NCBI GenBank assembly: GCA_035574475.1
Contig: DATLYR010000164.1
Span: 1-61,502, forward strand
Source of the DNA: Nevskiales bacterium
GTDB taxonomy: Bacteria > Pseudomonadota > Gammaproteobacteria > Nevskiales > DATLYR01
Length of the DNA: 61,502 nt
Direction: 5' to 3'
Below, in pieces: positions 1,506-17,440 of this stretch. The notes below the pieces were generated by a model. It was not told the origin of the DNA and did no database searches. It saw only the letters and a program-made list of their open reading frames with translations. Both the position numbers and the translations under genes were made by a program. Each line of letters starts with the position of its first letter. The first letter of the stretch is position 1.

Positions 1506-1507
1506 AC

Positions 1508-1714: not shown

Positions 1715-1751
1715 GTCAGGTCACGCCGCGCCCCGTGGGTACGCCACTGCG

Positions 1752-2651
1752 TCAGAAATTGAGGCGAAAGCCGGTGGTCAGGATGAAATTGTTCCTGAGC
1801 GCGCTGCCGTTCAGGTGCTGCGAGACCGGTATCTGAGCGCCCGCTTCGAGCACCCATTTGCGGGTCACATACTGCACGGTCGGCGTCAGGAACAGCGTCG
1901 TGCCGCCCGAGTTCCGAGCGTCAGCCCCATCGACCCGATCCTTGGCTACATGGATCAGGTTGGCCTCCAGCCCGCCGTAGAGAAAGCTGGGGACGCCTTC
2001 GCCCAACGTGCCGGGCCACAGCCGGCGCTGGACCGACAGATCGAGGCGGCTGACCGCGCCGGCTCGGAATCCGTTGGCCTCGCCGTTGCGCTGATGGGCG
2101 AGTTGAACGTCCCATCCCCAATCCAGGGATTGGAAAGACGCCACCGCGCCGCCTTGCCAGTCCCAGGAGCCCGAACCCGGCTGGAGCATAGTCGGCAGCC
2201 GTCCCAGGCGATCGGAGGCGTGGTCATCGCCGGTCGGCGCCTTGACGCCGAGAAACGGCGCGATGCGGAAGGTATGCCCCGTCGCGTTGTCCTCGTAGAC
2301 CGTGTAGCGGCCCATGAACATCGCATCGCCAAAGCCCGACTGGCTGCGCGTCGCGTCCGCCCCACCCACGTTCATCGACAGCCGCTTGTCGGCATAAGGC
2401 AGCACCGCGAACACGGCAATGTCACGGGTGACGCCGTAGCCCAGCACGGACATCAGACCGGAAACCTCCATGCGGCGGTTCATCGATGATGGATCGTCGG
2501 CGCTCTTCACGTAGACGAGCTGCTCGCGCAGAATCCACTCGTCCTTGGAGATGGGCAGGGCCGTGTTGAAGGTCAACGGCGCGGCGTTGACGGCCCCCGC
2601 CCAGGCGCAAAGCACGGCCAGCGCCAGGATGTTTCCGGGCGGGACGTTCAT
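1752..2651 (-). CDS. outer-membrane beta-barrel protein (MetA-pathway/'transporter' OMP family-like)
   Basis: 299 aa with a signal peptide (LAVLCAWAGAVNA/AP), an alternating beta-strand pattern and a C-terminal ...TTGFRLNF. Its start overlaps the stop of the upstream HMA gene. Confidence 0.7.
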   Translation of the reverse strand: MNVPPGNILALAVLCAWAGAVNAAPLTFNTALPISKDEWILREQLVYVKSADDPSSMNRRMEVSGLMSVLGYGVTRDIAVFAVLPYADKRLSMNVGGADATRSQSGFGDAMFMGRYTVYEDNATGHTFRIAPFLGVKAPTGDDHASDRLGRLPTMLQPGSGSWDWQGGAVASFQSLDWGWDVQLAHQRNGEANGFRAGAVSRLDLSVQRRLWPGTLGEGVPSFLYGGLEANLIHVAKDRVDGADARNSGGTTLFLTPTVQYVTRKWVLEAGAQIPVSQHLNGSALRNNFILTTGFRLNF

Positions 2652-2965
2652 TTGGCTTCTTCCTTGGAAACCTTCGCGTCACCGGGCGTGAAGCCGGCGT
2701 CATGGATCAACTGCTTGTAGCGTTCGAGGTCGGGTTGCGCGCCGGGCTTGAGCACGATGTGGACGTTTTGCGACTTCAGGCTCGCGCTCGCACTATCGAC
2801 TTCGCTCGCCTTGCCGAGGCTCTTCTCCAGCCCATAGGCGCAGAACGGGCAGGTCATGCCCTTGACGGCAATGTCCACCACCTGGCGCTCCGCGCCGAAG
2901 GCCATGAGTGGCAGGCAAAGCGCCAAGGCGGCTGCCAGGTGTTTCAGATAGGGTCTTTTTTGCAT
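2648..2965 (-). CDS. periplasmic heavy-metal-associated (HMA) domain protein, MerP-like
   Basis: Only the last 105 codons of ORF 2648-3733 look real: MQKRPYLKHLAAALALCLPLMAFG signal peptide followed by GMTCPFCAYG (the GMTCxxC motif). Confidence 0.8.
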   Translation of the reverse strand: MQKRPYLKHLAAALALCLPLMAFGAERQVVDIAVKGMTCPFCAYGLEKSLGKASEVDSASASLKSQNVHIVLKPGAQPDLERYKQLIHDAGFTPGDAKVSKEEAK

Positions 2966-2994
2966 GACGATGATCTCCTGCGAGGATGGGAGGC

Positions 2995-3393
2995 TCAGAC
3001 CCCGAGCCAGATACGGATCGGCAGCGCCAGATAGGCGGCGAAGAAGCCGATGCCCCAGAGGGCGGCCGAGACACCATGAATCCGCCGGTTCCAGCGCTGG
3101 GCGCGCTCGCACAAGCGCCCCAGCTCGGGATCGCTCGGGCAGGTGCGACCCGGCCGGTAGAGCAGCCAGCCGGAGACCAGCAGCATCAGCCCGGAGCCGG
3201 CGAACACCCAAGCCTTGTGCAGGGCCAGCGTGCCCAGGAAGGGCACGGCACTGGTGACGGCCGCCACGGCGGCGCCCAGGCCCAGCGTGACGAACAGGAT
3301 CGGCAGCGCGCAGCAGATCAGCGTGCCGGTCGAGGTGAACAGCGTCAGCCAACTGACGACGCTTTGCGGAAGTGGTGAGGGATTGGTTTTCAT
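2995..3393 (-). CDS. MerT-like membrane protein with a vicinal Cys pair in TM1
   Basis: 132 aa. It has TGTLICCALPILF (CC..P in the first TM, as in MerT), a second Cys pair in a loop (RTCPSDPELGRLC) and 3-4 TM helices. Confidence 0.6.
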   Translation of the reverse strand: MKTNPSPLPQSVVSWLTLFTSTGTLICCALPILFVTLGLGAAVAAVTSAVPFLGTLALHKAWVFAGSGLMLLVSGWLLYRPGRTCPSDPELGRLCERAQRWNRRIHGVSAALWGIGFFAAYLALPIRIWLGV

Positions 3394-3402
3394 TGTGTGC
3401 TC

Positions 3403-3657
3403 CTACCAGGTCAGCCAGGGGAAAAAGGCGAACCAGCCATTGAGCAGATACAGGCCGGTGAGCATCAGCAGGATGCTGCCGGTCAACTCGAAAGCCCTTT
3501 GGTAGCGTCCGAGCGGTTTCATATGCTCGATCCGCTCCAGCGCGGCGGCCGCCAGAGCCAGGGGAATCGCGCGGCCGATGGCGAAACTGGTCAACATCGC
3601 CGCGCCGAACAGCGGCGAGCCGCCGGCTGCCGGCGTGTAGAACAGCTCGATCCTCAT
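3403..3657 (-). CDS. CcdA/DsbD-type transmembrane domain protein, short form or C-terminal stub
   Basis: 84 aa with 2 TM helices, resembling the C-terminal third of DsbD_2/CcdA proteins. ATGA overlap with the merR-like stop. The expected N-terminal ~140 aa are absent. Confidence 0.45.
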   Translation of the reverse strand: MRIELFYTPAAGGSPLFGAAMLTSFAIGRAIPLALAAAALERIEHMKPLGRYQRAFELTGSILLMLTGLYLLNGWFAFFPWLTW

Positions 3658-4076
3658 GGCGCGCGCTTGGCCTCAAAGCTGACCGCTTCCAGGGCCGCCA
3701 GGATCGGACAGTCATCGACAGGCAGCGCCCCACCCGAACACTCGGCGATCAGCACGTCGAGCGCGGCCGACATCGCCTGCATGGCGCGAATCTTGGCGGC
3801 GAGCTGGAGTTTCTTCTCGATGGCGCGGCTCTTTATGTCGTCGCAGCATGCGCCGTCGGCCTGGCGCAGGTGCAGCAGGTCACGAATCTCTGCGAGCGTG
3901 AAGCCGCAAGCCTGGGCGTGCTGGATGAAGCGCACCCGCCGCACCGCATCCTCGCCATAGAGGCGATAGCCGCTATCGGTCTTGCCTGCCGGGATGAGCA
4001 GCCCCTCGCGCTCGTAATAGCGCAGCGCGTCGGGGCTGATACCGGCAGCCTTTGCCAGCTTGCCGATGGTCAGCAT
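3654..4076 (-). CDS. MerR-family heavy-metal-responsive transcriptional regulator
   Basis: MLTIGKLAKAAGISPDALRYYEREGLL HTH domain. Cys77-Cys78 plus C113-x9-C123 (AECSGGALPVDDC) lie at the metal-binding positions of CadR/ZntR/MerR-type regulators. Confidence 0.9.
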   Translation of the reverse strand: MLTIGKLAKAAGISPDALRYYEREGLLIPAGKTDSGYRLYGEDAVRRVRFIQHAQACGFTLAEIRDLLHLRQADGACCDDIKSRAIEKKLQLAAKIRAMQAMSAALDVLIAECSGGALPVDDCPILAALEAVSFEAKRAP

Positions 4077-4345
4077 CAGGGCTGGCCGAGGCCGGCGGCG
4101 CGCAGGCTCGCCTCATCGACACCGCGATCAACGCAGCAGCCGGCGAGCCGGCCATCGATCGCCACGGCTGGCACCGAGCGCACGCCGAGCGCCTTCGCGC
4201 GCTGTGCGACGGCCAAGTCGCGCATGTCGAGCACATCGACTTCGCACGAGGAGCAGGCCAGGCTTTTTACAAGGGTTTCGACATCGGTGCAGGCCGGGCA
4301 GCCGGCGCTGAACACCTCGACTTTGCGCTTGGCAGTCATGTTCAA
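4076..4345 (-). CDS. small thioredoxin-fold protein (redox-active disulfide protein-like)
   Basis: 89 aa with GCPAC near the N-terminus plus CSSC and GCC. It is the first gene behind the MerR-type promoter. Confidence 0.7.
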   Translation of the reverse strand: MNMTAKRKVEVFSAGCPACTDVETLVKSLACSSCEVDVLDMRDLAVAQRAKALGVRSVPAVAIDGRLAGCCVDRGVDEASLRAAGLGQP

Positions 4346-4406
4346 ACTCCTTCCACACTCATGAAGAACACGCCTGCGTGGTCGCAGGCCACCTCTTCAC
4401 AACACC

Positions 4407-4438
4407 ACTCTAAACCTTTGAGTGCACTCCAAGGTCAA
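4407..4438 (-). promoter_or_regulatory. MerR-type promoter with a long spacer and an operator dyad
   Basis: Minus strand reads TTGACC (4438-4433), a 19-20 nt spacer, then TAGAGT (4412-4407). The spacer holds the dyad ACCTTGGAGTG/CACTCAAAGGT (4414-4435, 1 mismatch). Confidence 0.55.
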
Positions 4439-4581
4439 GCCGGATTTCAGCCTGCGGATGCCTTGCTGGCAACGAGAAGCCGTCATGGCCGGCTTTCTGC
4501 TGCGCCGCAGGCTGAGGCTGCAGCCTGGTTTGGGAAATCGCACAGCTGCCGCTCTACACGCTGTGTAACGAACCGAGCGTA

Positions 4582-4898
4582 GGACGCATGGCCTTCGCGG
4601 TCGCCCACTGCACGGCCGGCGACCTGCTCATCGGCATGACGGCAGTCGTGCTCGCCCTGCTGGCGCAGCGGGCGGGCACTTTCCGGGAGTGGCTGCGCAG
4701 GGCGGTACCCCTGACCGCAATCCTGCTCGCCATGCTCTACATGGCACCCGCGAGCGGCTCAGCCTGACGGCAGGCAACTGGGCCTATGCGCCCTGGATGC
4801 CCATCGTGCCCGGCATCGAGATCGGGCTGTCACCCTTGCTGCAATGGCCGGCTGTGATCGCCTGCGCCTGGTGGTGGGCGCACCGCGCCGTCCGTTAA
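4582..4898 (+). pseudogene. small membrane protein gene with an apparent 1-nt frameshift
   Basis: MAFAVAHCTAGDLLIGMTAVVLALLAQ...LAMLYMAPASGSA* (4582-4761) continues sensibly in ORF 4689-4898 (..RERLSLTAGNWAYAPWMPIVPGIEIGLSPLLQW..). The frame changes near 4745. Confidence 0.3.
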
Positions 4899-5971
4899 AG
4901 CAGCCGGCCGATCATCCAGGCGACTGCCATCGCCAGCGGCAAGGTCGCTACCCAGGACAGCAGGATGTTGCCCAGGGCTTTCCAGTCCAGGGTGCCCGCG
5001 TTCGCCCCGACACCGGCGATCGCGCCCACCGAGACGTGGGTAGTCGAAACCGGCAGCCCCAGCGGACTGGCGCACAGCACCAAGGCAGCGGTGATCAGGT
5101 TTGCGCTCATGCCTTGCGTGGGGTCCATGCGGCTGACGCGCTGGCTCATCGTTTGCGCGACGCGACGCGCGAACAGCCAGCCACCGGCCGCCATCACGGC
5201 CGCAATCATCAGGATCGACAGGGGCGCATCCACGAGCTGCGCGGCGAGCAGCAGCGCCGTCAGCTTGGGGGTGTCGTTGACGCCCCGGGCGAAGCAGATC
5301 GACATCGCGGACAGCACGTGCAGGCGGTCCATGCTCCGAGACACCGACCAGCGCACTGGCGCGTCCAGCCGCTCGCAGTCCGCAGCCCCCGCCACGATGA
5401 CCGCAGGGACCGCCAAACGCACCACTGCTGCCCGATCGCCCGGCGCAGACGTTGCCGGTTCCAACGGCACGACGCATAGGCAATCCCTGGCGCCGGTGAG
5501 CGGCCGCAACACACGATACGCCACCGCGCTCAACAGGGCTGCGAGCAAGGGGCTGAGCAGCAGCGGCAGCAAGAACATGACCACCAGCCGGTCGAGGTGC
5601 ACAGCGCTGTTCTGCGCCAGATTCGCCCCCACCAGCGCGCCGATCAAGGCATGCGTGGTGGAGACCGGAAGCCCGAGTCGGGTGGCCATCAGCACCGTCA
5701 TGGCCGCGCCGCTGGCCACCGCGGTCATCAGGCGAGGATCCCCAACGACCGCATCGGGCACCAGCCCTTTGCCGGTGAAGGATTGCGCCAGCGCGGCGGC
5801 CAGGCCCCAGGATGCGAGGCTGCCGGCCACCGTGGCCAGCGTGGCCCAGGCGAGCGCCCGGCGATAGTCCAGGATCTGCGCTCCCCAGACCGTGGCAAAG
5901 CCTTTGAAGTTGTCGTTGGCGCCGTTGCCAAGCGCCAACACCAGCACGGCCACGAGGGTGAGCAGTTCCAT
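4895..5971 (-). CDS. inorganic phosphate transporter, PiT (PHO4) family
   Basis: 358 aa. GANDNFKG at the N-terminus, duplicated GLPVSTTH motifs and GVNDTPK are all typical of PiT. Confidence 0.9.
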   Translation of the reverse strand: MELLTLVAVLVLALGNGANDNFKGFATVWGAQILDYRRALAWATLATVAGSLASWGLAAALAQSFTGKGLVPDAVVGDPRLMTAVASGAAMTVLMATRLGLPVSTTHALIGALVGANLAQNSAVHLDRLVVMFLLPLLLSPLLAALLSAVAYRVLRPLTGARDCLCVVPLEPATSAPGDRAAVVRLAVPAVIVAGAADCERLDAPVRWSVSRSMDRLHVLSAMSICFARGVNDTPKLTALLLAAQLVDAPLSILMIAAVMAAGGWLFARRVAQTMSQRVSRMDPTQGMSANLITAALVLCASPLGLPVSTTHVSVGAIAGVGANAGTLDWKALGNILLSWVATLPLAMAVAWMIGRLL

Positions 5972-5986
5972 GGCTGGCCTCGTGGT

Positions 5987-7027
5987 TTAGCAGCAGCTCG
6001 ATGCCGCCGCCCCCGTCGCCCCGACATCGAACGGCAAGCCGCCACCGCAGCCGGCAAACAGGCCATAGTGGCGGGAGAAGTCACCGATGAAATCGAAGTG
6101 CGGGGCAAAGCGCGTCTCGTGGAGCATGCGCCAAGTGTTGCCGCACACCGGAAAGACACGCCCGGTTTCGATGTCGTGGTGTTTGTCGAGCGTGAAGCGA
6201 TCCGGGCACTGCGGGATGCTGCCACGGTAGATCACGGCCTGACCGTAGTCTTCGCAGGCACTCTCCAGTGCGTCGAGCTTGAACAGCCGGTAAGTGGCCG
6301 AAAAAAAGCGCGCGCTGCCCAGCTTGGCCGCCAACGTCGGGTCCGTCACGGCCAGCGGCCGGTCGCTGACCAGGCGCGGGTCGGCAAACCCTGCCGCCTG
6401 CGCCAGTCGAAGGAAATCGTTCCAGTACAGCGCACCGCCCAGGCATTCACCGTAGAGCACCGGATCGTGGCGCACCGCCTGCGGCAAACGCCGGTCGGCA
6501 TAGACATCGGAGAAATAGAACTCGCCGCCCGGCTTGAGCAGCCGCTGCACGCCCGCCAGCACGGCCGGTTTGTCCGGTGAGAGGTTGACCACGCAGTTGG
6601 AGACGATGACATCGAAGCTGCCGGGGGGCAGATCGAGCGCGTCGAGCTGTTCGATATAGCCTTTGACGAAGCGCACATTGGCGTAGCCGAAGCGCTCGGC
6701 GTGCCAGTCGCGGTGTTGCTGCGCCACCGCGAGCTGCTCGTCGGTCATGTCCACACCCACCACCTCGCCATGGGGGCCGACCAGTTGCGCGAGCAAATAC
6801 ACATCGCGGCCGCTGCCGCAGCCCAGATCGAGCACGCGGCAGCCCTCCAGCAACGGCGGGCACACCAGTCCGCAGCCGTAGTAGCGCGCCTGCACCTCGG
6901 GGTGGATGTTGGCCAGCAGCGGTTTGAGCCACTCGGGCACCTGGCTGGGGTCACAGCAGGCGCTGGTCTTCAAGTCGTCTGAGTGCTGAAGCTGTTTGCC
7001 GTAATAATCTTGGACCAGGGCATGCAT
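5987..7027 (-). CDS. arsM: arsenite S-adenosylmethionine methyltransferase
   Basis: Real start is MHALVQDYYGK at 7027, inside ORF 5987-7927. It has N-terminal TSACCD, the SAM motif VLDLGCGSGRD, SNCVVNLSPDK, YGECLGGALY and a C-terminal SSCC. Confidence 0.85.
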   Translation of the reverse strand: MHALVQDYYGKQLQHSDDLKTSACCDPSQVPEWLKPLLANIHPEVQARYYGCGLVCPPLLEGCRVLDLGCGSGRDVYLLAQLVGPHGEVVGVDMTDEQLAVAQQHRDWHAERFGYANVRFVKGYIEQLDALDLPPGSFDVIVSNCVVNLSPDKPAVLAGVQRLLKPGGEFYFSDVYADRRLPQAVRHDPVLYGECLGGALYWNDFLRLAQAAGFADPRLVSDRPLAVTDPTLAAKLGSARFFSATYRLFKLDALESACEDYGQAVIYRGSIPQCPDRFTLDKHHDIETGRVFPVCGNTWRMLHETRFAPHFDFIGDFSRHYGLFAGCGGGLPFDVGATGAAASSCC

Positions 7028-7047
7028 GGGAAGTGGCCTCCACGGCG

Positions 7048-7392
7048 TCAGGGGAATTGACAGGGCGCTTCGCGCGCCACGAAATGCAGATCGACCTCCA
7101 GCGGCCGCGCAAGCAGAGCCATGCTGGCCATCGCCTCGGCTTCGACGGCGGCCACGCCGTCCCACTCGCGCACGCGGTAACGGGTGGGCGGCACCCTGTC
7201 CGACAAGCGCACCACACGCCACGGTGCCGGGGGCACGTCCGTTGTGACCCCGGCAAAGCGCCCCACCCAATGCACGGGGGCGGAGGTGGCGGCGGAGGGA
7301 TGGTTTGCTGGGATGGGGGGCGATGGGGTTTGCGCCTGGGCCGCCGAGAGGGTCAGGACGCCCAGCGCCAGGGTCCACAGACGTGCGTTCAT
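7048..7392 (-). pseudogene. DUF3047-like secreted protein, N-terminal half only
   Basis: MNARLWTLALGVLTLSAAQA signal peptide, then PWRVVRLSDRVPPTRYRVREWDGVAAVEAEAMASMALLARPLEVDL, which matches the start of DUF3047. The ORF stops 20 nt before arsM, at about half the usual length. Confidence 0.5.
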
Positions 7393-8015
7393 GCCGCCTC
7401 CTGCCACGCCGCGGGCAGCGCGGCCAGATGTTCGGGTTCGTCGATGTCAGTGAGGGCCGGCGCTTCGGCCCAGTGCCAGCCGAGCGCCGCCATGCGTGCG
7501 CGGGTGACCGCGGCCACCTCTGGTGTGCTCCAGGGCATGTCGGCAAACAAGCGGGGGTGCGGCTCGCGCACGCCCAAGGCCACATAGCCACCATCGGTGC
7601 TGGGCACGAGCACGGCATCGTGCGTGTGCAGCCCTTGCACCACGGCGTGCAGGGCTGCAGCGTCGAGCGCCGGGCAGTCCGTGCCGATGAACAGCAGCGC
7701 GTGCCCTGCTGCCGCATGGTGTTCGGCCATGCGCCACAGACGCTCGCCCAAATCGCCCGCGCCTTGATCCACCCAGCACAACTGTTGCGCCAGCGCAGCG
7801 GGCAGAGCGTCCTGCCAGGCCGGGTGGGTCGGCGCGGGGCTGGTGCACAGCACGACGTCGCCCACCGCGGACGCCAGCGCTTGCTGCACGGTGTGCGTGA
7901 GCATGCGCTGTGCCAGCCGCGCCGCACCCTCTGGCCCCAGGGCCGGGATCAGCCGCGTTTTGACCACACCGGGCTGCGGCGCTTTGGCGAACACGAGCAC
8001 GCGCACGGGCCTCAT
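7389..8015 (-). CDS. DUF2064 / TIGR04282-type glycosyltransferase (arsenosugar-cluster type)
   Basis: Start MRPVRVLVFAKAPQPGVVKTRL at 8015, in ATGA overlap with the upstream gene. FIGTDCP and DGGY motifs are present. Confidence 0.8.
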   Translation of the reverse strand: MRPVRVLVFAKAPQPGVVKTRLIPALGPEGAARLAQRMLTHTVQQALASAVGDVVLCTSPAPTHPAWQDALPAALAQQLCWVDQGAGDLGERLWRMAEHHAAAGHALLFIGTDCPALDAAALHAVVQGLHTHDAVLVPSTDGGYVALGVREPHPRLFADMPWSTPEVAAVTRARMAALGWHWAEAPALTDIDEPEHLAALPAAWQEAA

Positions 8016-8686
8016 CGGTACGCCCTCGCCAACACGTCGGGATCGGCCCCGAAAAAATAACGGGCGCGCAGCCACCACATCAGAACGATGGTGCGCCACA
8101 CACCGCGACTCTCCCAGCGGCGGCCCGAGGTGGTCACGCGCAGACGCAGGCAGGCCGGGCGCGACAGGCGCTTGAGCCGGCGCGAGAGTTCGATGTCTTC
8201 CATCAGCGCCTGGGCGGGATAGCCCCCCACCTGTGCAAAGGCTGCGCGGGAGACGAAGAGGGCCTGATCGCCGGTGGCGATGCCGCTCAACCGCGAACGC
8301 CCATTCATCAGCGCGGCCACCACTCCCAGCCAGTGGCTGCGGCCGTCGATGTGGACGTCGAAGCGCCCCCAGACATGGCGGCCGTCGCGCAGCGCCGCTT
8401 CGATGGCCACGGCGGCCCCCGCAGGCAGCCGTGTATCGGCATGCAGAAACAGCAGCGCATCGCCCTGTGCTGCCGCCGCACCGGCGTTCATTTGCGTGGC
8501 GCGGCCGCGCGTGGCGGTGAGCACCGTAAAGCCCGCGGCCTGCGCCAGCGCAGGCGAGCCATCGTGGCTGCCGCCATCGACCAGGAGCACCTCGTGCCCC
8601 TGTCGCCGCAGCACATCGAGCTGTGCCAGCAAGGCAGGCAACTGGGCTGCTTCATTGAGCATCGGCACGATGATCGACAGCTTCAT
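8012..8686 (-). CDS. family-2 glycosyltransferase, TIGR04283-type (arsenosugar-cluster type)
   Basis: Start MKLSIIVPMLNE at 8686 (ATGA overlap). It has LLVDGGSHDGS, FLHADT and MEDIELSRRL motifs. Confidence 0.8.
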   Translation of the reverse strand: MKLSIIVPMLNEAAQLPALLAQLDVLRRQGHEVLLVDGGSHDGSPALAQAAGFTVLTATRGRATQMNAGAAAAQGDALLFLHADTRLPAGAAVAIEAALRDGRHVWGRFDVHIDGRSHWLGVVAALMNGRSRLSGIATGDQALFVSRAAFAQVGGYPAQALMEDIELSRRLKRLSRPACLRLRVTTSGRRWESRGVWRTIVLMWWLRARYFFGADPDVLARAYR

Positions 8687-10842
8687 GCCGCTCCTCGCAT
8701 CCAGCGGTGGTAGCGCTCCACCCACGCCAGCAGCCGCTGGGGTGCATGGGCGCGCTTCCATTCGCCCGCGGCGTATTTATTGGCTTCCGCCCAGGTGGGG
8801 TAGGTATGGATGGTGGAGAGGATTTTGTTCAGCCCCAGCCCGTGCTTCATTGCCAGCACGAACTCGGCGAGCAGGTCGCCAGCATGTTCCCCGACGATGG
8901 TCACGCCCAGAATGCGATCGCGCCCCGGCTCGGTCAGCACCTTGACGAAGCCATGGGCCGCGCCATCGGCGATCGCGCGATCCAGATCATCCAGCCCATA
9001 GCGGGTCACCTCATAGGCGATGCCCTTGGCTTGCGCGTCTTGCTCGTTGAGACCGACACGGGCCACTTCCGGATCGATGAACGTCGTCCACGGGATCACC
9101 GAGTCATCCACCTTGAACTTCTTGAAGCGGCCAAACAGCGCATTGACGGCGGCATACCAGGCCTGGTGAGAGGCCGTGTGGGTGAACTGGTAGGGCCCGG
9201 CGACATCACCGGCGGCGTAGATATTCGGATACAGCGTTTCCAGATACGCGTTGGTGACGACGGTGCGCTGCGTTTCGATACCCAGCTCCTCCAGACCATA
9301 GCCTTTGAGCCGGGCCACCCGGCCCACGGCGCAGATGAGTTCATCGAATTCGATGCGCTGTTCACGGCCCGTGTGTTCGACGACGATGAGCTTGCGTTCG
9401 CCCTCACGTTCGCAACGCAGCGCCTGGTGGCCCGTGAGCACCTCGACGCCGTCGCGGGCCAGTGCCTCCTCGGCCAGCGCCGAGACATCCGCGTCTTCGC
9501 GGATCAGCAAGCGCGGCGCCATTTCGATCTGGGTGACCTTCACCCCCAGTCGCGCAAACGCCTGTGCCAGCTCGCAGCCGATCGGCCCGCCACCCAGCAC
9601 GACCATGCGGCCGGGCATCGCATCGCGCTGTGCCAAGGTCTCCCACAAGGTATCCGAGGTGAGGTAACCCACCGCGTCGAGACCGGGCAAGGGCGGGACG
9701 AAGGGTTGTGCCCCGGCAGCGATGACGATACTGCGAGCCGTCAGGCGTTGGCTGCCATCGTTGCGCTGGATCTCCACCGTCCACGGATCCACGATCTTCG
9801 CGTAACCCTGCACCACATCGACGCCCAGATTGGTGTAGCGCTCGATGCTGTCATGCGGTTCGACCGCGCGGATCACCGCGTGCACCCGCCGCATGACCGC
9901 TTGGAAGGAAAAGGCCGGCTCACTGGCGGTCAGCCCGTAATGGTCGGCATGGCGGATGAGATGCGCGGCCTTGGCGCTTTTGATCAAGGCCTTGCTGGGC
10001 ACGCAGCCGTAGTTGAGGCAATCGCCCCCCATCTTGTGCGCTTCCACCAGCGTCACCTTGGCCTTGACCGCAGCCGCGATATAGGCCGTGACCAGACCCG
10101 CTGCACCGCCACCGATCACGATCAGGTTGCGATCGAAACGGGCTGGTCGCTGCCAGCGTGCATACAGACGCCGCCGCTGCAGTGCGCGCACCAGTGCACG
10201 GGCCAGCCATGGAAACACGCCCAGCAGCGCAAACGCGCCGAGCAGCGTGGGCGAGACGATGTCCGAGAGGCTGCGCAACTGCGCGATCTGGGTGCCTGCA
10301 TTCACGTACACCAGCGTGCCGGCCAGCATGCCGAGCTGGCTCACCCAGTAGAACGTCCAGGCACGCATCGCGGTCAGGCCCATCAGCACATTGATGAGGA
10401 AGAAGGGCACCACCGGTACCAGGCGCAGCGTGAACAAATACAACGCGCCATCGCGCCGAATGCCCGCATCGATGGCCGAAAGGCGCTCACCGAAGCGACG
10501 CTGCACCCCGTCGCGCAGCAGGTAGCGCGAAACCGCAAACGCCAGCAGCGCCCCCACGCTGGAGGCAAAGGACGCGATCAGCGTGCCCTGCCACAGGCCG
10601 AACAAGGCCCCCGCGGCCAGCGTCAGCACTGCCGCGCCGGGCAGCGACAGCGCCGTGACCGCCACATACAGCATGAAAAACCCCAGCACCGCCGCGACCG
10701 GGTGGGCAGCGCGCCAGGCCTGCCAATCGGCCAAGCCAGCCTGCACGGCCGCCAGGTTCAGCCAGCGCGGCCCCCCAGCGGCAAAGAATGCGATCAGCGC
10801 CAGCGCGATCGCGGCCAGTACGAGCGCTTTACGCGCATTCAT
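8683..10842 (-). CDS. fusion protein: TVP38/TMEM64 (DedA-like) membrane domain plus flavoprotein disulfide reductase
   Basis: Start MNARKALVL at 10842. The N-terminal ~230 aa are multi-TM (VPVVPFFLINVLMG). The rest has GGGAAG, the redox centre GGDCLNYGCVPSK, a second GGGPIGCE fold and HTYPTWAE. Confidence 0.85.
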   Translation of the reverse strand: MNARKALVLAAIALALIAFFAAGGPRWLNLAAVQAGLADWQAWRAAHPVAAVLGFFMLYVAVTALSLPGAAVLTLAAGALFGLWQGTLIASFASSVGALLAFAVSRYLLRDGVQRRFGERLSAIDAGIRRDGALYLFTLRLVPVVPFFLINVLMGLTAMRAWTFYWVSQLGMLAGTLVYVNAGTQIAQLRSLSDIVSPTLLGAFALLGVFPWLARALVRALQRRRLYARWQRPARFDRNLIVIGGGAAGLVTAYIAAAVKAKVTLVEAHKMGGDCLNYGCVPSKALIKSAKAAHLIRHADHYGLTASEPAFSFQAVMRRVHAVIRAVEPHDSIERYTNLGVDVVQGYAKIVDPWTVEIQRNDGSQRLTARSIVIAAGAQPFVPPLPGLDAVGYLTSDTLWETLAQRDAMPGRMVVLGGGPIGCELAQAFARLGVKVTQIEMAPRLLIREDADVSALAEEALARDGVEVLTGHQALRCEREGERKLIVVEHTGREQRIEFDELICAVGRVARLKGYGLEELGIETQRTVVTNAYLETLYPNIYAAGDVAGPYQFTHTASHQAWYAAVNALFGRFKKFKVDDSVIPWTTFIDPEVARVGLNEQDAQAKGIAYEVTRYGLDDLDRAIADGAAHGFVKVLTEPGRDRILGVTIVGEHAGDLLAEFVLAMKHGLGLNKILSTIHTYPTWAEANKYAAGEWKRAHAPQRLLAWVERYHRWMRGAA

Positions 10843-11810
10843 CGGGCATCTCCTGCCAGGGCTCCGCCGCAACTGCTGCCCTGGCCCGCGGTGCAGCCGT
10901 AGCAGTGGTCGGCCACGCAGACCGGCCCACCGTCCACATCCTGCGCCAGCAGATCCCGCAGATGGGCGCGTCCAGGCCGCGCACCGAGCGGCAGGCCGAG
11001 CTGCTGGTTGAAGTCGCAGTCGTAGAGATACCCCTGCCAGTCCACACTGACGAGATCGCGGCACATCACGCCCTCGAGGTTGTCGGCGCGGAAGTTGGCC
11101 TTGAGCAAATCCATATAGCCCGCGAACTGCCCTTTGGAAATCAGCCACGAGCCAAAGCGGTTGATCGGCATGTTGGCCAGCGCATAGAGCCGGTTGAAGA
11201 CGATGCCGAAATGCTCGCCCAGCTCGCGCCGGTAGGCGGCTTCCAGTTTCGTCTGCTCCGGCGGCAGGCTGGGGCCTTGCGGGTTGTAGACGAGGTTGAG
11301 CACCAACCCCAAACCTTCCTGTCCGTAGCCCAAGGCATTGAGCCGCTGCAAGCCGGCGATGCTTTTGTCGAACACGCCATCACCACGTTGCCGATCCACA
11401 TTGTCGGCCGAATAACAGGGCAGCGAGGCCACCACCTCCACCTGCTGCGCGGCCAGGAACTCGGCCAAATCGTCCTGCCCCGGCTCGAACAGGATGGTGA
11501 GGTTGCAACGGTCGATCACGCGCACGCCCAACGCGCGCGCCTGCTGCACCAGTGTCCGAAAGCCCGGATGCAGCTCGGGTGCGCCGCCGGTAAGGTCCAG
11601 CACCTCGATGCGGCGCGCCACCAGCACCTTGGGGATCAGCGCCAGCGTGTCGGCCTCCATCATCTCTTTGCGATGCGGGCCGGCATTGACATGGCAATGC
11701 ACGCAGGACTGGTTGCAGCGGTAGCCCAGATTGACCTGCAAGGTGCTGGTACGACGGCGCGTGAGCGATGGAAAGTCGGTGGCCTCGAGCAAGGGCAAGG
11801 TGGCGTGCAT
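10839..11810 (-). CDS. arsS: radical SAM/Cys-rich protein, ArsS-type
   Basis: Start MHATLPLLE at 11810. It has the CNQSCVHC radical-SAM cluster motif and a C-terminal DHCYGCTAGQGSSCGG tail. Confidence 0.85.
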   Translation of the reverse strand: MHATLPLLEATDFPSLTRRRTSTLQVNLGYRCNQSCVHCHVNAGPHRKEMMEADTLALIPKVLVARRIEVLDLTGGAPELHPGFRTLVQQARALGVRVIDRCNLTILFEPGQDDLAEFLAAQQVEVVASLPCYSADNVDRQRGDGVFDKSIAGLQRLNALGYGQEGLGLVLNLVYNPQGPSLPPEQTKLEAAYRRELGEHFGIVFNRLYALANMPINRFGSWLISKGQFAGYMDLLKANFRADNLEGVMCRDLVSVDWQGYLYDCDFNQQLGLPLGARPGRAHLRDLLAQDVDGGPVCVADHCYGCTAGQGSSCGGALAGDAR

Positions 11811-11861
11811 GGAAAGCTCCTGGTGATGGGGCAGCGCGATGGAGACAGCGATGCATGCGGC

Positions 11862-11891
11862 TTGGTCGCAGGCTGTGGCGAGTTTCTTACA
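11862..11891 (-). promoter_or_regulatory. putative ECF-sigma promoter (copy 1) upstream of arsS
   Basis: Minus strand reads TGTAAGAAACTCGCCACAGCCTGCGACCAAG. It shares TGTAA-N18-CGACCAA with four other sites and lies 51 nt upstream of the arsS ATG. Confidence 0.55.
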
Positions 11892-11924
11892 CCCAATGCG
11901 CACCCGTCAGTCTGCTGGGTTCCC

Positions 11925-11954
11925 TGTAATGAAAGCGCCGCTCGTCACGACCAA
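11925..11954 (+). promoter_or_regulatory. putative ECF-sigma promoter (copy 2) upstream of the AhpD-like gene
   Basis: TGTAATGAAAGCGCCGCTCGTCACGACCAAT, 64 nt upstream of the ATG at 12019. Confidence 0.5.
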
Positions 11955-12018
11955 TCACCACCGTGCGCTTGGGCACGGCACTGGCCCACAAGCCCCCCAA
12001 TTCATCAGGAGACCTTCG

Positions 12019-12591
12019 ATGACCGCTGCCATTGCCAAACTCGACCTGCCTGCCCAGACCTTGGAGTCCACCTCCGGAAAGGCGCGTGAGATGCTCGAAA
12101 CCGCCCAGGCCAGGCTGGGTTTCGTGCCCAACATGTACGCCAACATGGTCAACTCACCCGGCTTGCTGGAAACCTATCTCATGGGGTACGAGCGCTTCCG
12201 GCAGGACAGTGGCTTCACCCCCGCCGAGCAGGAAGTCGTGTTCCTGACCATCAGCCGCTTTCATCGCTGCACCTACTGCATGGCGGCACACAGCATGATC
12301 GCCGACAAGGTGTCGAAGGTGCCCGCCCCGGTGCTGCAGGCGCTGCGTGACGGCACGGCCATTCCCGACGCCAAGCTCGCGGCTTTGTCCGCCTTCACCC
12401 ACGCGATGGTGGAAAGCCGCGGGGCGCCCACGCCCGAGCAGGTTCAGGCGTTTCGCGCCGCGGGCTACACCGACCGCCAGGTGCTCGAGATCATCCTCGC
12501 CATCGCGGTCAAGACGCTGAGCAACTACAGCAACCACGTGTTGCACACCCCCGTGGACGCAGCCTTCCAGGCCTATGCCTGGTCGGACTGA
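12019..12591 (+). CDS. carboxymuconolactone decarboxylase (AhpD-like) family protein
   Basis: RBS AGGAGA then ATG at 12019. It has the RCTYCMAAH (CxxC) motif and SNY..H typical of the CMD/AhpD fold. Confidence 0.8.
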   Translation: MTAAIAKLDLPAQTLESTSGKAREMLETAQARLGFVPNMYANMVNSPGLLETYLMGYERFRQDSGFTPAEQEVVFLTISRFHRCTYCMAAHSMIADKVSKVPAPVLQALRDGTAIPDAKLAALSAFTHAMVESRGAPTPEQVQAFRAAGYTDRQVLEIILAIAVKTLSNYSNHVLHTPVDAAFQAYAWSD

Positions 12592-12612
12592 TCCCGTGAC
12601 ATGCATCGGGTG

Positions 12613-12641
12613 TGTAAGAACCACGCCGCTCACACGACCAA
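12613..12641 (+). promoter_or_regulatory. putative ECF-sigma promoter (copy 3) upstream of bufA
   Basis: TGTAAGAACCACGCCGCTCACACGACCAAA, 76 nt upstream of the ATG at 12718. Confidence 0.55.
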
Positions 12642-12717
12642 ACACCCGTCACGTCGCCTTTGCGGCCCCAGCGACGCCGACGCCATCCAGGGGCCTCGAC
12701 CGCACAGGAGATTTGCC

Positions 12718-13023
12718 ATGAACCAGAAACTGTCCGCTGCCGCTCTCACGCTGGCGCTGGGTACCGTGTTGGCCACTGCCGCGACCACCGCCACGGCGCA
12801 GGACATGGGGATGGGGGGGAAGGAAAAATGCTATGGCGTCGCCCTGAAGGGCAAAAACGATTGTAAGGCTGGTCCAGGCACGACCTGTGCCGGAACCGCG
12901 GCAAAGGACTATCAAGGCAACGCCTGGAAGTTCGTCCCCGCCGGCACGTGCGAAAAGACCGCTTCACCGACCTCGCCCACGGGTTTCGGTCAGCTCAAGG
13001 AGTTCAAAGAAAAGAAGGCTTAA
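12718..13023 (+). CDS. bufA: DUF2282 / BufA1-type bufferin precursor peptide
   Basis: RBS AGGAG then ATG at 12718. Sec signal [29 protein letters not shown], followed by a core with four Cys: EKCYG, NDCKAG, TTCAG and GTCEK. Confidence 0.85.
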
Positions 13024-13089
13024 GGCATCGCTACTGCAATCGGGCCTATGGCATGCCGCCATAGGCCCGGCATTCGTCAGGAGAGTGCC

Positions 13090-13986
13090 ATGGCATGGCC
13101 ACCGCCCACGACATTCCAGACTTTGTCGGTATTGCCATTGCGTGCCGGTTTGGGACTCAAGTCCGAGCATTACCGCGTGATCCTCGATCAGGTGCCGGAT
13201 GTAGGTTTCTTCGAGATCCATGCGGAGAACTATTTCGTCGCAGGCGGCCCCATGCACCACTCTCTGGGCCGCATTCGGGAGCGCTACGCCCTCTCCATCC
13301 ACGGGGTGGGCTTGTCCATTGGCGGCGCGGGGCTGCTGGACCGCGCGCATCTGGCGGCGCTGAAAGCCTTGCTGGCGCGCTACCAACCGCAGGCGTTTTC
13401 GGAACATCTGGCCTGGTCCAGCCACGGCGGGCATTTCCTCAACGACTTGCTGCCGCTGCCCTATACCGACATCACCCTGCAGCGCGTGTGCGCCCACATC
13501 GACCAGGTGCAGGAGACGCTGGGCCGCCGCCTGCTGCTGGAAAACCCCGCGACCTATGTCGAATTCGCCGCTTCCACCTGGGACGAGGCGGACTTCATCG
13601 CCGAGGTGGTGCGCCGCACCGGCTGTGGCCTGCTGCTCGACGTCAATAACGCGTATGTGAGCTGCACCAACCACGGCCGTGACCCTGACGCCTATCTGAC
13701 GCGGCTGCCCCTGCACGCGGTGGGGGAAATCCACCTCGCTGGCTTTGCCGAGGACGTGGATGGTGCGGGCGCGCGACTGCTGATCGACAGCCACGGTGCG
13801 CCGGTGGACGATGCCGTGTGGGCCTTGTACCGGCGGGCGCTGTGCTACACCGGCCCGGTGCCGACCTTGATCGAGCGCGACCAGAACCTGCCGCCCTTCG
13901 AGGTGCTGTTGGCAGAAGCGCATGCCGCCGACGCGCTGCTGGCCGAGGCGGCAGCAACGATTCCGATGCTGCAGGAGGTGGTGTGA
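13090..13986 (+). CDS. bufB: DUF692 / MNIO (multinuclear non-haem iron oxidative) enzyme, BufB-type
   Basis: [45 protein letters not shown] and ERD motifs fit the DUF692 TIM-barrel family. I chose the ATG at 13090 because it follows an AGGAGAG RBS. Confidence 0.9.
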
Positions 13987-14753
13987 TGCACGCCTGGAGG
14001 CAAGCGCTGCTCGATCCTTCTCTGCCACCGCCGCCCGGTCTGGTCGCGTGGAACGGCTCGGAGGTGGCCACCCGCTTTGCGGTGTACCGCAACAACGTCG
14101 TCGTCTCGCTCATCGACGCCCTGGCCGATACCTATCCGGTGGTGGTGCAGTTGGTAGGCGAGGCGTTTTTCCGCGCGATGGCGCGTGAATACGTGCGCGC
14201 GCATCTGCCGACCTCGCCCGTGCTCGCGCAGTACGGCGGTGATTTCGCCACGTTCATCGACACCTTTGCCCCGGCGGCGTCGGTGCCGTATCTCTCGGAC
14301 GTGGCCCGGCTGGAGTGGGCCTACCTGCAGGCCTTGCACGCCCCGGATGCGCCGGTGCTGACCCCGGCGGCCCTGCAGGCGGCGCTCGCCGATCCCGAAC
14401 GCCTGCCCGCGCTGCGCCTCCATCTGCACCCCTCGCTGCACGGCTTGCGGCTGCGCCACGCCGCCGTGTCGATCTGGGCAGCGCACCACGGGGAGGGTGC
14501 GCTGGAGGCGATCGACCCTGGGCGCGCGGAAAACGCCGTGGTCGTGCGCACCGACCTCTCCGTGCAAGTGATTCCCGTGGCGGATGGCGCCGTCGCCGTG
14601 CTGGATGACCTGGCCGCGGGCTTGCCCCTGGGCGCCGTGTTCGAGCGCCTGGCCGCGCGCGATGCCCCGCTCGATCTGGGCGAATGGCTGGGCCTGCTGC
14701 TGCGGGTGCAAGGGCTGAGCGCACTGAGCTTGACACCCACCGATGATGCGTAA
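13986..14753 (+). CDS. bufC: DUF2063 protein, MNIO partner (BufC-type)
   Basis: ATG at 13986 overlaps the bufB TGA. FAVYRNNVVVSLIDALADTYPVV and ARLEWAY are typical of DUF2063. Confidence 0.85.
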   Translation: MHAWRQALLDPSLPPPPGLVAWNGSEVATRFAVYRNNVVVSLIDALADTYPVVVQLVGEAFFRAMAREYVRAHLPTSPVLAQYGGDFATFIDTFAPAASVPYLSDVARLEWAYLQALHAPDAPVLTPAALQAALADPERLPALRLHLHPSLHGLRLRHAAVSIWAAHHGEGALEAIDPGRAENAVVVRTDLSVQVIPVADGAVAVLDDLAAGLPLGAVFERLAARDAPLDLGEWLGLLLRVQGLSALSLTPTDDA

Positions 14754-14765
14754 GGAGACCCCATC

Positions 14766-15263
14766 ATGAACACCTGCACCCCTTGGACCCAATGGCCGCG
14801 CCGCATCATCGCCCTGTTCGAGCGCATTCCGCACAGCGCCATCGCGCTGCTCGCACGGTTTTCTATCGCAGCGGTGTTTTGGAAATCGGGCCAGACGAAG
14901 ATCGAAGGGCTGGCTATCGACCTCATTGACGGGCAGTGGCAGCTCGGCTGGCCGCATCTGTCCGACAGCGCCGTGGAGCTGTTTCGCAGCGAGTACCAAC
15001 TGCCCGTGCTGCCGCCGGAACTGGCGGCGCTGCTGGCGGCGTTTGCCGAACATCTGTTCCCGCTGCTGCTGCTCGTCGGACTGGCCACGCGCTTTTCCGC
15101 ATTGGCCCTGCTGGGCATGACCGCGGTGATCCAGTTTCTGGTCTACCCCGGCGCCTACCCGACCCACGGCACCTGGGCGGCGGTGCTGCTCTACCTGATG
15201 GTGTATGGGCCGGGGACGTTATCGATGGATCATGTCATCGCGCGTCGTTGCCGCCACGGCTGA
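14766..15263 (+). CDS. bufD: DoxX-family membrane protein (BufD-type)
   Basis: 165 aa with 4 TM helices. RFSIAAVFWKSGQTK and AEHLFPLLLLVGLATRFSAL fit the DoxX pattern. Confidence 0.8.
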   Translation: MNTCTPWTQWPRRIIALFERIPHSAIALLARFSIAAVFWKSGQTKIEGLAIDLIDGQWQLGWPHLSDSAVELFRSEYQLPVLPPELAALLAAFAEHLFPLLLLVGLATRFSALALLGMTAVIQFLVYPGAYPTHGTWAAVLLYLMVYGPGTLSMDHVIARRCRHG

Positions 15264-15275
15264 GTGGGGTGTGCC

Positions 15276-17410: not shown

Positions 17411-17440
17411 AGCGCTCCCGTTTGGGGTGACCAATGTCTA

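Follow-up and report, generated by a model that had tools for sequence, protein, structure and literature searches.

A contig of a Nevskiales bacterium (DATLYR010000164.1 in assembly GCA_035574475.1) carries on its minus strand a packed set of genes that combines a radical S-adenosylmethionine (SAM) protein of the ArsS type and a methyltransferase of the ArsM type with a protein in which a VTT/DedA membrane domain is fused to a flavoprotein disulfide reductase (hereafter, the fusion). We analyzed the complete stretch of 61,502 nt, which we refer to as the window and which has a GC content of ~66% and a composition that is unbroken across the locus. The gene order, read from the sequence, is arsS, the fusion gene, a GT2 glycosyltransferase gene, a DUF2064 gene, the remnant of a DUF3047 gene, arsM, and a PiT transporter gene. 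We find that this locus is an undescribed proteobacterial variant, predicted to be controlled by an extracytoplasmic function (ECF) sigma factor, of a known type of pathway, and that many near-identical copies of it are present in public genomes.

All seven genes lie on the minus strand. The first, arsS (10839-11810, 323 aa), is preceded by the ribosome-binding site CCAGGAG and matches TIGR04167, DUF3641, and Radical_SAM; the fusion gene (8683-10842, 719 aa) matches VTT_dom, Pyr_redox_2, and Pyr_redox_dim; the GT2 gene (8012-8686, 224 aa) matches TIGR04283 and Pfam Glycos_transf_2; and the DUF2064 gene (7389-8015, 208 aa) matches TIGR04282. These are followed by an open reading frame (ORF) of 114 aa (7048-7392) with a Pfam DUF3047 score of 26.3 bits, by arsM (5987-7027, 346 aa), which matches solved ArsM structures, and by the last gene of the putative operon, which encodes a phosphate (arsenate) transporter of the PiT/PHO4 family (4895-5971, Pfam PHO4 227.8 bits). 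The genes overlap at four ATGA sequences (10842-10839, 8686-8683, 8015-8012, and 7392-7389), the fourth of which leads from DUF2064 into the 114-aa ORF, and gaps of 20 nt and 15 nt separate this ORF from arsM and arsM from the PiT gene, respectively. The initial annotation of this stretch had listed the first three overlaps at exactly these positions, and we add the fourth together with the PiT gene. Of the six packed minus-strand genes that it counted, the fifth is only a DUF3047 remnant that covers positions 2-48 of the 198 positions of the domain model, whereas full-length relatives have ~250 aa. Only its signal peptide and the leading quarter of the domain are left, and DNA homology to the full gene in the closest relative stops at ~7087; judging from these matches, the ORF is what is left of a gene for a periplasmic DUF3047 protein.

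ArsS scores 461.6 bits against the TIGR04167 equivalog model (cutoff 300) over profile positions 2-303 of 303. Residues 32-39 (CNQSCVHC) form the CxxxCxxC cluster motif of radical-SAM proteins, the C-terminal part is a Cys-rich DUF3641 domain (185 bits) with the C-terminal sequence CYGCTAGQGSSC, and the protein is 70% identical to a cyanobacterial homologue encoded next to arsM (locus L165; related loci are referred to by such numbers where they must be told apart). By these matches, it is a radical-SAM 5'-deoxyadenosyl transferase predicted to act on dimethylarsenic. In Synechocystis, ArsS attaches the 5'-deoxyadenosyl radical derived from SAM, and the product, 5'-deoxy-5'-dimethylarsinoyl-adenosine, later loses its adenine (PMC12159101; bioRxiv 10.64898/2026.04.29.721666); in this organism, arsS is cotranscribed with arsM and takes the methylated product of ArsM (bioRxiv 10.1101/2022.09.23.509062).

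The methyltransferase matches the solved ArsM of Chlamydomonas (PDB 5evj) with 349.8 bits over query residues 2-330 and CmArsM (PDB 4fr0) with 310.6 bits, and it is ~50% identical to biochemically defined ArsMs. Its catalytic cysteines C24/25, C52, C145, and C195 all align with those of the solved enzymes (C44, C72, C174, and C224 in CmArsM), and the surrounding motifs TSACC, YYGCG, SNCVVNL, and YGECLGGALY match the same motifs in 5evj and 4fr0. The narrow NCBIfam models for ArsM were not reached (NF008823, 175 bits with a cutoff of 263; NF038099, 88.6 bits with a cutoff of 400). Because the four catalytic cysteines are kept and the match to a solved ArsM amounts to 350 bits, the protein is, on sequence grounds, a genuine ArsM, that is, an As(III) SAM methyltransferase, and both the ArsS and the ArsM assignments made in the initial annotation stand. 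The ArsM sequence ends, at window positions 5987-5995, in a vicinal cysteine pair (..AAASSCC) that apparently sits on a flexible tail. This tail is reminiscent of those that serve redox reactions or metal handling at the C-termini of MerA and of large thioredoxin reductases, and it could be the contact point for the fused reductase.

The fusion consists of an N-terminal VTT/DedA membrane domain (residues ~1-225) of the TVP38/TMEM64, COG0398 type and a C-terminal class-I flavoprotein disulfide reductase (residues ~238-700), with Pfam scores of 88.9 bits for VTT_dom (gathering threshold 33.9), 208 bits for Pyr_redox_2, and 104 bits for Pyr_redox_dim; the COG0398 label was taken from the architecture described in PMC10127716 and was not scored directly. 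In the alignment of fusion homologues, R140, L141, P143, P146, and F147 of the re-entrant VTT loop (RLxPxxPF) are invariant. The reductase part has the redox disulfide CLNYGC, and both the motif GGDCLNYGCVPSK and the His-Glu dyad HTYPTWAE are present, in agreement with the initial annotation. The protein falls below every NCBIfam equivalog cutoff: the best model, NF004991, gives 487 bits with a cutoff of 620, the model for dihydrolipoamide dehydrogenase (Lpd; TIGR01350) 387.1 bits with a cutoff of 408.8, and the MerA model (TIGR02053) 375 bits with a cutoff of 454.45. Matches to PDB entries lie between 190 and 250 bits, with MerA 5x1y on top at 253 bits, and the reductase is about equally far from solved MerA and Lpd. 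The family is large, with at least 8000 protein matches and at least 579 species-representative loci at 70-83% identity, and its members are spread over Beta-, Gamma-, and Zetaproteobacteria. NCBI names some relatives (P0091) 'bifunctional TVP38/TMEM64 family protein/FAD-dependent oxidoreductase'. Among the domain fusions known for COG0398 DedA proteins, the one with such a reductase is the most frequent, no function is given for it, and DedA proteins are flippases or scramblases of undecaprenyl phosphate and, as such, candidate movers of lipid carriers (PMC10127716). Literature searches for the cassette, for DUF2064, for DUF3047, and for the fusion combined with arsenic yielded nothing relevant, and the statement in the initial annotation that the fusion has no assigned substrate agrees with the scores and with this single mention in the literature.

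The initial annotation had counted two glycosyltransferases in the locus. One of them, the GT2 protein, matches TIGR04283 (280.6 bits, cutoff 182), and its gene overlaps both neighboring genes. A profile built from 28 GT2 orthologues matched in PDB ArnC (5e-10), dolichol-phosphate-mannose synthase (DPMS; 2.7e-8), and GtrB (7.5e-6), so that by profile comparison the closest solved relatives are polyprenyl-phosphate sugar synthases. The other, the DUF2064 protein, is probably of a different kind. It matches TIGR04282 with 193.5 bits (cutoff 134), Pfam DUF2064 with 107.5 bits, and the CofC model TIGR03552 with 61.6 bits, and its orthologue profile finds in PDB its own family first (3cgx, 8e-39) and then the CofC homologue 2i5e, FbiD 7p97, and CofC 6bwg. 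Because its nearest characterized relatives are the guanylyltransferases CofC and FbiD, it is probably a CofC/FbiD/MobA-like nucleotidyltransferase acting on a phosphorylated substrate rather than a glycosyltransferase. All three profiles proposed for checking the locus (TIGR04167, TIGR04282, and TIGR04283) score above their cutoffs. No published test of the function of either the GT2 or the DUF2064 protein was found in the literature searched, consistent with the earlier remark that both carry their names by genomic association only.

Upstream of arsS, an ECF-type promoter was identified on the minus strand (11862-11891) that consists of the -35 element TGTAAGAA (11891-11884), a 15-nt spacer, and the -10 element CGACCAA (11868-11862) and ends 51 nt before the arsS ATG. 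The -35 element has four exact copies in the window, whereas 0.14 are expected and none of 100 shuffled sequences reached four. All four are followed by CGACCAA after 14-15 nt, and each faces the start of a gene: arsS; bufA, the first gene of a bufferin operon (12613-12641, plus strand, TGTAAGAA-N14-CGACCAA); the operon of a TIGR03169 pseudogene, a sigma factor, and an anti-sigma factor (17441-17470, minus strand); and a gene for a 148-aa membrane protein (17488-17517, plus strand). The latter two sites form a back-to-back pair (17441-17517). The initial annotation had proposed that an ECF-type promoter is shared by arsS and a metallophore operon, and we find it before these two operons and before the sigma factor operon as well. 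In the same region, a -35 box GGAAC is present upstream of arsS but was rejected because relatives do not conserve it and its spacing is wrong. The scan for sigma-70 promoters gave 0 hits, terminator-like hairpins lie mostly within genes, and an Rfam scan of the intergenic region between arsS and the divergent CMD-family gene gave no match.

The promoter is also recognizable outside the window. When 165 related loci were scanned together with the window, the pattern TGTAAGRA-N13-16-CGAC was found at 124 places (107 unique sites), compared with 0-2 in shuffled sequences; spacers are 14 or 15 nt only, and the positions after CGAC, which the pattern leaves unconstrained, are conserved as Y-A-A. 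The gene that follows a unique site is most often arsS (29) or the fusion gene (28), and then come bufA (7), the gene for methylthioadenosine (MTA) phosphorylase (5), and arsM, the sigma factor gene, the gene for a ZAS-type anti-sigma factor, and the TIGR03169 gene (4 each); genes for a periplasmic MsrB and for binding proteins are also among them. Genes internal to the cluster lack the motif (GT2, 0 of 92; DUF547, 0 of 50). From this conservation, we conclude that the predicted ECF-type promoter is real, that it is conserved across many species, and that it is common to the arsS, bufferin, and sigma factor operons. In three related loci, genes for a secreted MsrB-type methionine sulfoxide reductase and for YnjB-like periplasmic binding proteins lie directly downstream of the motif (L037, 1017-1517; L012, 16252-17427; L060, 13165-14355), and these targets suggest that the regulon repairs or protects the envelope.

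The sigma factor itself (16282-16911, minus strand, 209 aa) matches NF009196 (318.6 bits, cutoff 287) and TIGR02943 (244 bits, cutoff 162). An assignment to ECF18/RpoT was considered and dropped, as we could not connect the published work on that group with the sigma factor of the window, and we assign no ECF group number. The anti-sigma factor (16061-16288, minus strand) is a zf-HC2 protein of 75 aa (NF052368, 71.3 bits, cutoff 50); a zinc-finger anti-sigma factor would fit the sensing of thiol-reactive stress. Among sequencing runs, one run of metagenomic DNA contains the window, and no RNA run does.

To quantify the association of the fusion with arsS, 80 fusion-centered and 80 arsS-centered species loci (the closest for each query) were searched by tblastn with defined queries within 10 kb, and percentages were calculated from the loci with full flanks (45 arsS-centered and 47 fusion-centered). 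The fusion is encoded near arsS in 67% of the arsS-centered loci (30 of 45) and directly abuts it in 24 loci, in agreement with the co-occurrence that the initial annotation had named as a check, whereas arsS is found in 36% of the fusion-centered loci. The dependence is asymmetric: arsS occurs mostly with the fusion, and the fusion often occurs without arsS. GT2 accompanies arsS in 84% and the fusion in 47% of the respective loci, and DUF2064 in 78% and 47%. The values for arsS-centered and fusion-centered loci are 33% and 36% for DUF547, 36% and 34% for DUF3047, 44% and 45% for the TIGR03169 oxidoreductase, 29% and 17% for arsM, 27% and 13% for MTA phosphorylase, and 22% and 23% for the ECF sigma factor. 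The phosphorylase encoded within the cluster in relatives is an MTA phosphorylase (TIGR01694, 320 bits, cutoff 275). Caldimonas manganoxidans has the same five-gene core as the window, and the pairing of arsM with the PiT gene recurs in L083, L008, L046, L079, L105, and L126.

The closest relative is a metagenome-assembled genome of the Steroidobacteraceae (L083, CP110108.1), whose fusion is 83% identical to that of the window. Its locus (2797-22163) has the fullest cassette, which begins with the MTA phosphorylase gene under an ECF promoter and continues with a block of TIGR03169, three small ORFs, and the sigma and anti-sigma factor genes. Next come arsS, the fusion gene, DUF547, GT2, DUF2064, DUF3047, a 137-aa ORF, arsM, a fragment of a low-molecular-weight (LMW) phosphatase (ArsC-type) gene, the PiT gene, and arsC-acr3-arsA. 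Compared with this full form, the window lacks DUF547, has a truncated DUF3047 gene, and retains TIGR03169 as a pseudogene. Because arsC-acr3-arsA lies next door in this relative, the cassette may be linked to arsenic detoxification. In the window, searches with ArsR, ArsB, and ArsC of Escherichia coli and with ArsC and Acr3 of a relative found no homologue at E≤1 other than two chance-level ArsR fragments (LMW-phosphatase-type ArsC and ArsH were not searched), and the earlier statement that arsR, arsB, and arsC are lacking holds to this extent.

A different neighborhood is seen in Rhodoferax ferrireducens T118 (L081, CP000267.1, 1743133-1765283). At positions 34-13873 of this locus, a senA/senB/senC-like cluster of the selenoneine type, together with a phosphonate-type ABC transporter, sits between an arsM that is 78% identical to that of the window and the genes for the fusion, a DUF547-like protein, GT2, and DUF2064. 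The ECF motif precedes the fusion gene (9915-9941) and senB-senC (4515-4489, minus strand), and arsS was not found within 10 kb. Both SenA-like and SenB-like genes occur near the fusion only in T118, L037, and L034, with SenC also in T118 and L037, and a SenA-like match alone is present in L012, L060, and L069. Several further 'SenC' matches near the fusion were discarded as cross-hits to the stand-alone TIGR03169 oxidoreductase and are not SelD fusions.

We propose, tentatively and at somewhat less than even confidence, that the locus encodes a pathway induced by metal or thiol stress that converts arsenic to a dimethylarsinoyl-riboside, probably lipid linked, with the fusion acting as its translocase and NAD(P)H reductase. 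The genes from arsS through pit would then form a single operon dependent on the ECF sigma factor, in which a module for an arsenical sugar has been grafted onto a general module for membrane redox and translocation; the same degree of confidence covers this proposal as a whole. A thiol-reactive metal(loid) or oxidant would inactivate the zinc-finger anti-sigma factor, and the freed sigma factor would start transcription at the TGTAAGAA-N14/15-CGACCAA promoters of the operons for arsS, for bufferin, and for the sigma factor itself and of the membrane-protein gene. PiT, as suggested by its family, would let in arsenate along with phosphate. ArsM would convert As(III) to dimethylarsenite, as known for its family and as expected from its catalytic cysteines, and ArsS, as described for its cyanobacterial orthologue, would convert dimethylarsenite and SAM to 5'-deoxy-5'-dimethylarsinoyl-adenosine. 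An MTA phosphorylase, here presumably acting in trans, could strip adenine to leave an α-ribose-1-phosphate derivative, which the DUF2064 protein, given its likeness to CofC and FbiD, might nucleotidylate. The GT2 protein would then move the arsenoribose to polyprenyl phosphate or a glycerolipid; the stereochemistry of an inverting GT2 would give the β-riboside that is typical of natural arsenosugars. The weakest step of the scheme is that of the fusion, in which the VTT/DedA domain would bring the lipid-linked product, or else the carrier, to the other side of the inner membrane and the cytoplasmic NAD(P)H-dependent reductase might keep arsenic or the dithiols that handle it reduced, replacing the missing ArsC or re-reducing ArsM in each cycle.

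The product of ArsS would be the arsenic analogue of MTA, and the route fits as chemically coherent. There is a precedent for the conversion of a 5'-substituted 5'-deoxyadenosine, namely MTA, to a polyprenyl-phosphate-linked pentofuranose donor in the methylthioxylose (MTX) capping of mycobacterial lipoarabinomannan (PMC11127046). The suggestion in the initial annotation of a broader role in envelope or metal stress likewise fits the composition of the regulon (bufferin, periplasmic MsrB, MTA phosphorylase, and senBC) and the ArnC/DPMS/GtrB-like GT2.

Several observations weigh against this proposal. In 64% of the fusion-centered loci, no arsS lies within 10 kb of the fusion, in Marinomonas it is accompanied by DUF547 only, and selenium-linked genes (TIGR03169 and the sen cluster) associate with it as well. 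As most loci lack a nearby arsS and the fusion gene has an ECF promoter of its own in part of them, the fusion is not an enzyme devoted to arsenosugars alone. The VTT domain has no cysteines and, therefore, cannot itself relay electrons. An AlphaFold2 model of the fusion based on 25 close homologues has a mean pLDDT of 60.5, which is too poor for domain geometry. GT2 matches ArnC and DPMS only weakly (E about 1e-9) and only over its catalytic GT-A half; it has a Trp/Arg-rich C-terminal helix but lacks a transmembrane helix. A GT-C gene was found neither in the window nor among the annotated relatives L081-L085, and the window contains no other obvious periplasmic transferase and no MTA phosphorylase gene that we could find; the periplasmic partners of relatives are absent (DUF547) or truncated (DUF3047). 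The strict ECF motif lies within 400 nt upstream of only 19 of 80 arsS genes. In the literature searched, we found experimental work on no step past ArsS.

Because the fusion lacks arsS in most of its loci, its service would be a general one, with arsenic as one client. In a wider form of the proposal, which we consider rather unlikely to hold in full, the fusion would be the hub of a widespread envelope defense against thiol-reactive metalloids and metals (As, Se, and Cu) under a sigmaF-like ECF sigma factor. Various 5'-substituted 5'-deoxyadenosines would be phosphorolysed, activated with a nucleotide, loaded onto a lipid carrier by an ArnC-like GT2, and translocated across the inner membrane by the DedA domain, the reductase would supply NAD(P)H-derived reducing power, and the substrate in the window would be the ArsS product.

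The strongest competitor of the proposed pathway holds that two functionally separate modules are merely coregulated, with ArsS, ArsM, GT2, and DUF2064 making arsenosugars on their own and the fusion serving as a general factor in envelope thiol or metal stress, together with DUF547, DUF3047, and TIGR03169 where these are present. For example, a small redox-active molecule might be recycled by the fusion or carried by it between the cytoplasmic and the periplasmic side. Because the co-occurrence is asymmetric, such a separation is quite possible, although on balance we doubt it. It would account for the 64% of fusion-centered loci without arsS nearby, for the ECF motif before 23 of 55 fusion genes that have no upstream arsS, for minimal loci with the fusion and DUF547, and for cyanobacterial and Zhongshania loci that have arsS-arsM with neither the fusion nor GT2; moreover, the regulon also comprises periplasmic proteins of redox or metal metabolism (bufferin, MsrB, DoxX, and CMD), and DUF547 is secreted and has a CxxxxC motif. 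On the other hand, the order arsS-fusion-(DUF547)-GT2-DUF2064 is interleaved and kept in many species, translational coupling joins arsS to the fusion gene in the window, the two abut in 24 loci, 67% of arsS loci have the fusion within 10 kb, and GT2 and DUF2064 accompany the fusion where arsS is not nearby (L002, L004, L059, L061, L066, L068, and T118).

We consider it improbable that the pathway makes a soluble arsenosugar purely for detoxification. Here, the reductase would reduce arsenate or pentavalent dimethylarsenic in place of ArsC, GT2 would glycosylate glycerol or another soluble acceptor, the VTT domain would export the product, and no lipid carrier would take part. The known cyanobacterial products are glycerol ribosides, GT2 has no transmembrane helices, arsenate would enter through PiT but no arsC was found in the window, and the closest relative has an LMW-phosphatase (ArsC-type) fragment between arsM and the PiT gene with arsC-acr3-arsA alongside. 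However, we know of no class-I flavoprotein disulfide reductase that reduces arsenate, the nearest solved relatives of GT2 are lipid-phosphate glycosyltransferases, and the fusion is common in loci without any arsenic gene. In addition, DedA/VTT proteins have been linked to the movement of lipids and not to the export of solutes (PMC10127716).

Selenium, alone or with arsenic, is a still more doubtful substrate. In this case, selenite or seleno-thiol adducts would be taken up and reduced by the fusion, and the product of the cassette would be a selenium compound that is methylated or glycosylated. In 44-45% of loci, a TIGR03169 oxidoreductase (335 bits, cutoff 310) is encoded within 10 kb, homologues of which form the N-terminal part of SelD fusions, and the window has it as a pseudogene, sen-like genes are near the fusion in ~6 of 80 loci, and in T118 the sen-like cluster between arsM and the fusion includes senBC with the same ECF promoter. 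A DedA protein has reportedly been linked to selenite resistance, and NCBIfam names show that the ArsS and ArsM families include selenoprotein forms; these variants reflect how the enzymes are built, however, and not their substrate. In favor of arsenic, ArsM has the complete As(III)-binding cysteine set and is ~50% identical to defined ArsMs, ArsS is 70% identical to a cyanobacterial ArsS that is paired with ArsM, and neither selD nor a sen gene was found in the window.

That the fusion is a membrane-anchored mercuric reductase belonging to the neighboring mer genes, as its top PDB match (5x1y, 253 bits), its 375 bits for TIGR02053, and the mer operon tail and MerR/HMA genes within 10 kb might suggest, is barely credible, given a score below the cutoff of 454, the lack of the C-terminal cysteine pair of MerA in all 25 of 25 aligned fusion homologues and of an NmerA/HMA domain, a His-Glu dyad of the Lpd/glutathione reductase type, and translational coupling to arsS and GT2 rather than to mer genes; we, therefore, rejected the assignment as MerA.

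The remaining genes of the region extend on both sides of the cluster. Divergent from arsS is a gene for an AhpD/CMD-family CxxC protein (12019-12591, plus strand, 190 aa; TIGR01926 74.2 bits with a cutoff of 81.8, Pfam CMD); in several loci without arsS, a CMD-family gene also immediately precedes the fusion gene. It is followed by the bufferin operon (12718-16070, plus strand), identified with Pfam models, which comprises bufA (DUF2282, 12718-13023), bufB (MNIO/DUF692, 13090-13986), bufC (DUF2063, 13986-14753), doxX (14766-15263), and a C92-like amidase gene (15264-16070). The bufferin family consists of copper-binding ribosomally synthesized and post-translationally modified peptides (PMC11626156). 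Next to the sigma factor gene, the TIGR03169 ('N-terminal-to-SelD') pyridine-nucleotide-disulfide oxidoreductase pseudogene (16920-17300, minus strand) retains only residues 57-183 and has an in-frame stop. The 148-aa membrane protein encoded beyond it (17528-17974) has no family match.

On the other side, the PiT gene is followed, in a 550-nt gap, by a decayed copy of a gene for a 150-aa membrane protein (4519-4886, plus strand) with an in-frame stop and a frameshift; the gene is intact in L107, where it is under the same ECF promoter. Thus, three accessory genes of the regulon (DUF3047, TIGR03169, and the 150-aa membrane protein) may have decayed here, although errors in the metagenome assembly are another possibility. 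Positions 1-4345 are a metal-resistance neighborhood whose start resembles the tail of mer transposons of the Tn21/Tn501 type. It contains the 3' end of merA (5-145, 87% identical to MerA of a relative), a merD-like gene (165-518), an EAL-domain gene (579-1505), an outer-membrane channel-like gene (1752-2651), an HMA/MerP-like gene (2648-2938) followed by genes for two small membrane proteins, a gene for a regulator of the MerR/ZntR type (3654-4076), and a thioredoxin/glutaredoxin-like gene (4076-4345).

Among the organic arsenic species of marine food webs, arsenosugars and arsenolipids predominate, and to our knowledge only ArsM and ArsS are known from the route to arsenosugars, and only from cyanobacteria. 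The cassette supplies candidates for the missing steps (MTA phosphorylase, a CofC-like nucleotidyltransferase, and an inverting GT2) and suggests that common heterotrophic Proteobacteria may make arsenosugar-type compounds. If the wider envelope-defense form of the proposal were true, heterotrophic Beta- and Gammaproteobacteria would be unrecognized producers of arsenosugar-type lipids or glycoconjugates, and the arsenosugar steps after ArsS could be assigned to MTA phosphorylase, DUF2064, and TIGR04283. The DedA-reductase fusion, with its thousands of sequences, gains a first gene context and a regulator, and the bufferin/sigmaF-type regulon is extended to the metabolism of arsenic and possibly of selenium, with the predicted promoter TGTAAGRA-N14/15-CGACYAA. 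If, instead, the fusion were a mere coregulated bystander, the finding would shrink to a routinely annotated arsenic gene cluster.

Among known systems, the arsM-arsS unit of Synechocystis sp. PCC 6803 is like the window in that both enzymes, a four-Cys ArsM and an ArsS equivalog, are encoded in a single transcription unit. Unlike the window, the cyanobacterial unit (L165) has no adjoining fusion, GT2, or DUF2064, whereas the window represents a heterotrophic, high-GC proteobacterial contig with an ECF promoter and a PiT gene. The cassette of TIGR04167, TIGR04282, and TIGR04283, once named 'rSAM/selenodomain-associated' and now assigned to arsenosugar biosynthesis, is present in the window as three adjacent genes whose products pass the cutoffs; however, the NCBIfam names reflect gene association, and the fusion, ECF control, MTA phosphorylase, DUF547, DUF3047, and TIGR03169 lie outside the definition of the cassette. 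The fusion has an architecture identical to that of COG0398 DedA proteins joined to a pyridine-nucleotide-disulfide oxidoreductase, to which the window adds the context of arsS, GT2, and DUF2064 and the ECF promoter. With MerA and Lpd, it shares the fold and the CxxxxC disulfide (190-250 bits); it differs from MerA in having neither the C-terminal cysteine pair nor an HMA domain and from Lpd in being membrane anchored, and it scores below both cutoffs.

The ArnC/ArnEF/ArnT, GtrB/GtrA/Gtr*, and MTX capping systems resemble the window in that a GT2 near ArnC, DPMS, and GtrB is found beside a candidate translocase, here of the DedA type, and MTX capping also draws its sugar from a 5'-substituted 5'-deoxyadenosine, as proposed for the window (PMC11127046). 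Unlike three-component glycosylation systems, the window has no GT-C, its GT2 has no transmembrane segment, and its DedA domain is fused to a reductase, so that the likeness is one of working principle only. The control of the locus resembles the sigmaF system of Caulobacter, whose site GTAACC-N16-CGAA (PMC3511200) is similar to GTAAGA-N16-CGAC in the window. As in the window, a DUF2282-DUF692-DUF2063-DoxX operon is driven in the Caulobacter sigmaF-bufferin regulon and in the gig operon of Cupriavidus (PMC11626156), and both the Caulobacter sigmaF regulon and the regulon of the window type include the repair of periplasmic methionine sulfoxide. The anti-sigma factors are different, a soluble zf-HC2 protein of 75 aa in the window and the six-helix NrsF in Caulobacter, and the sigma factor of the window belongs to TIGR02943/NF009196 and, unlike Caulobacter sigmaF, would head a regulon whose commonest targets are arsS and the fusion gene.

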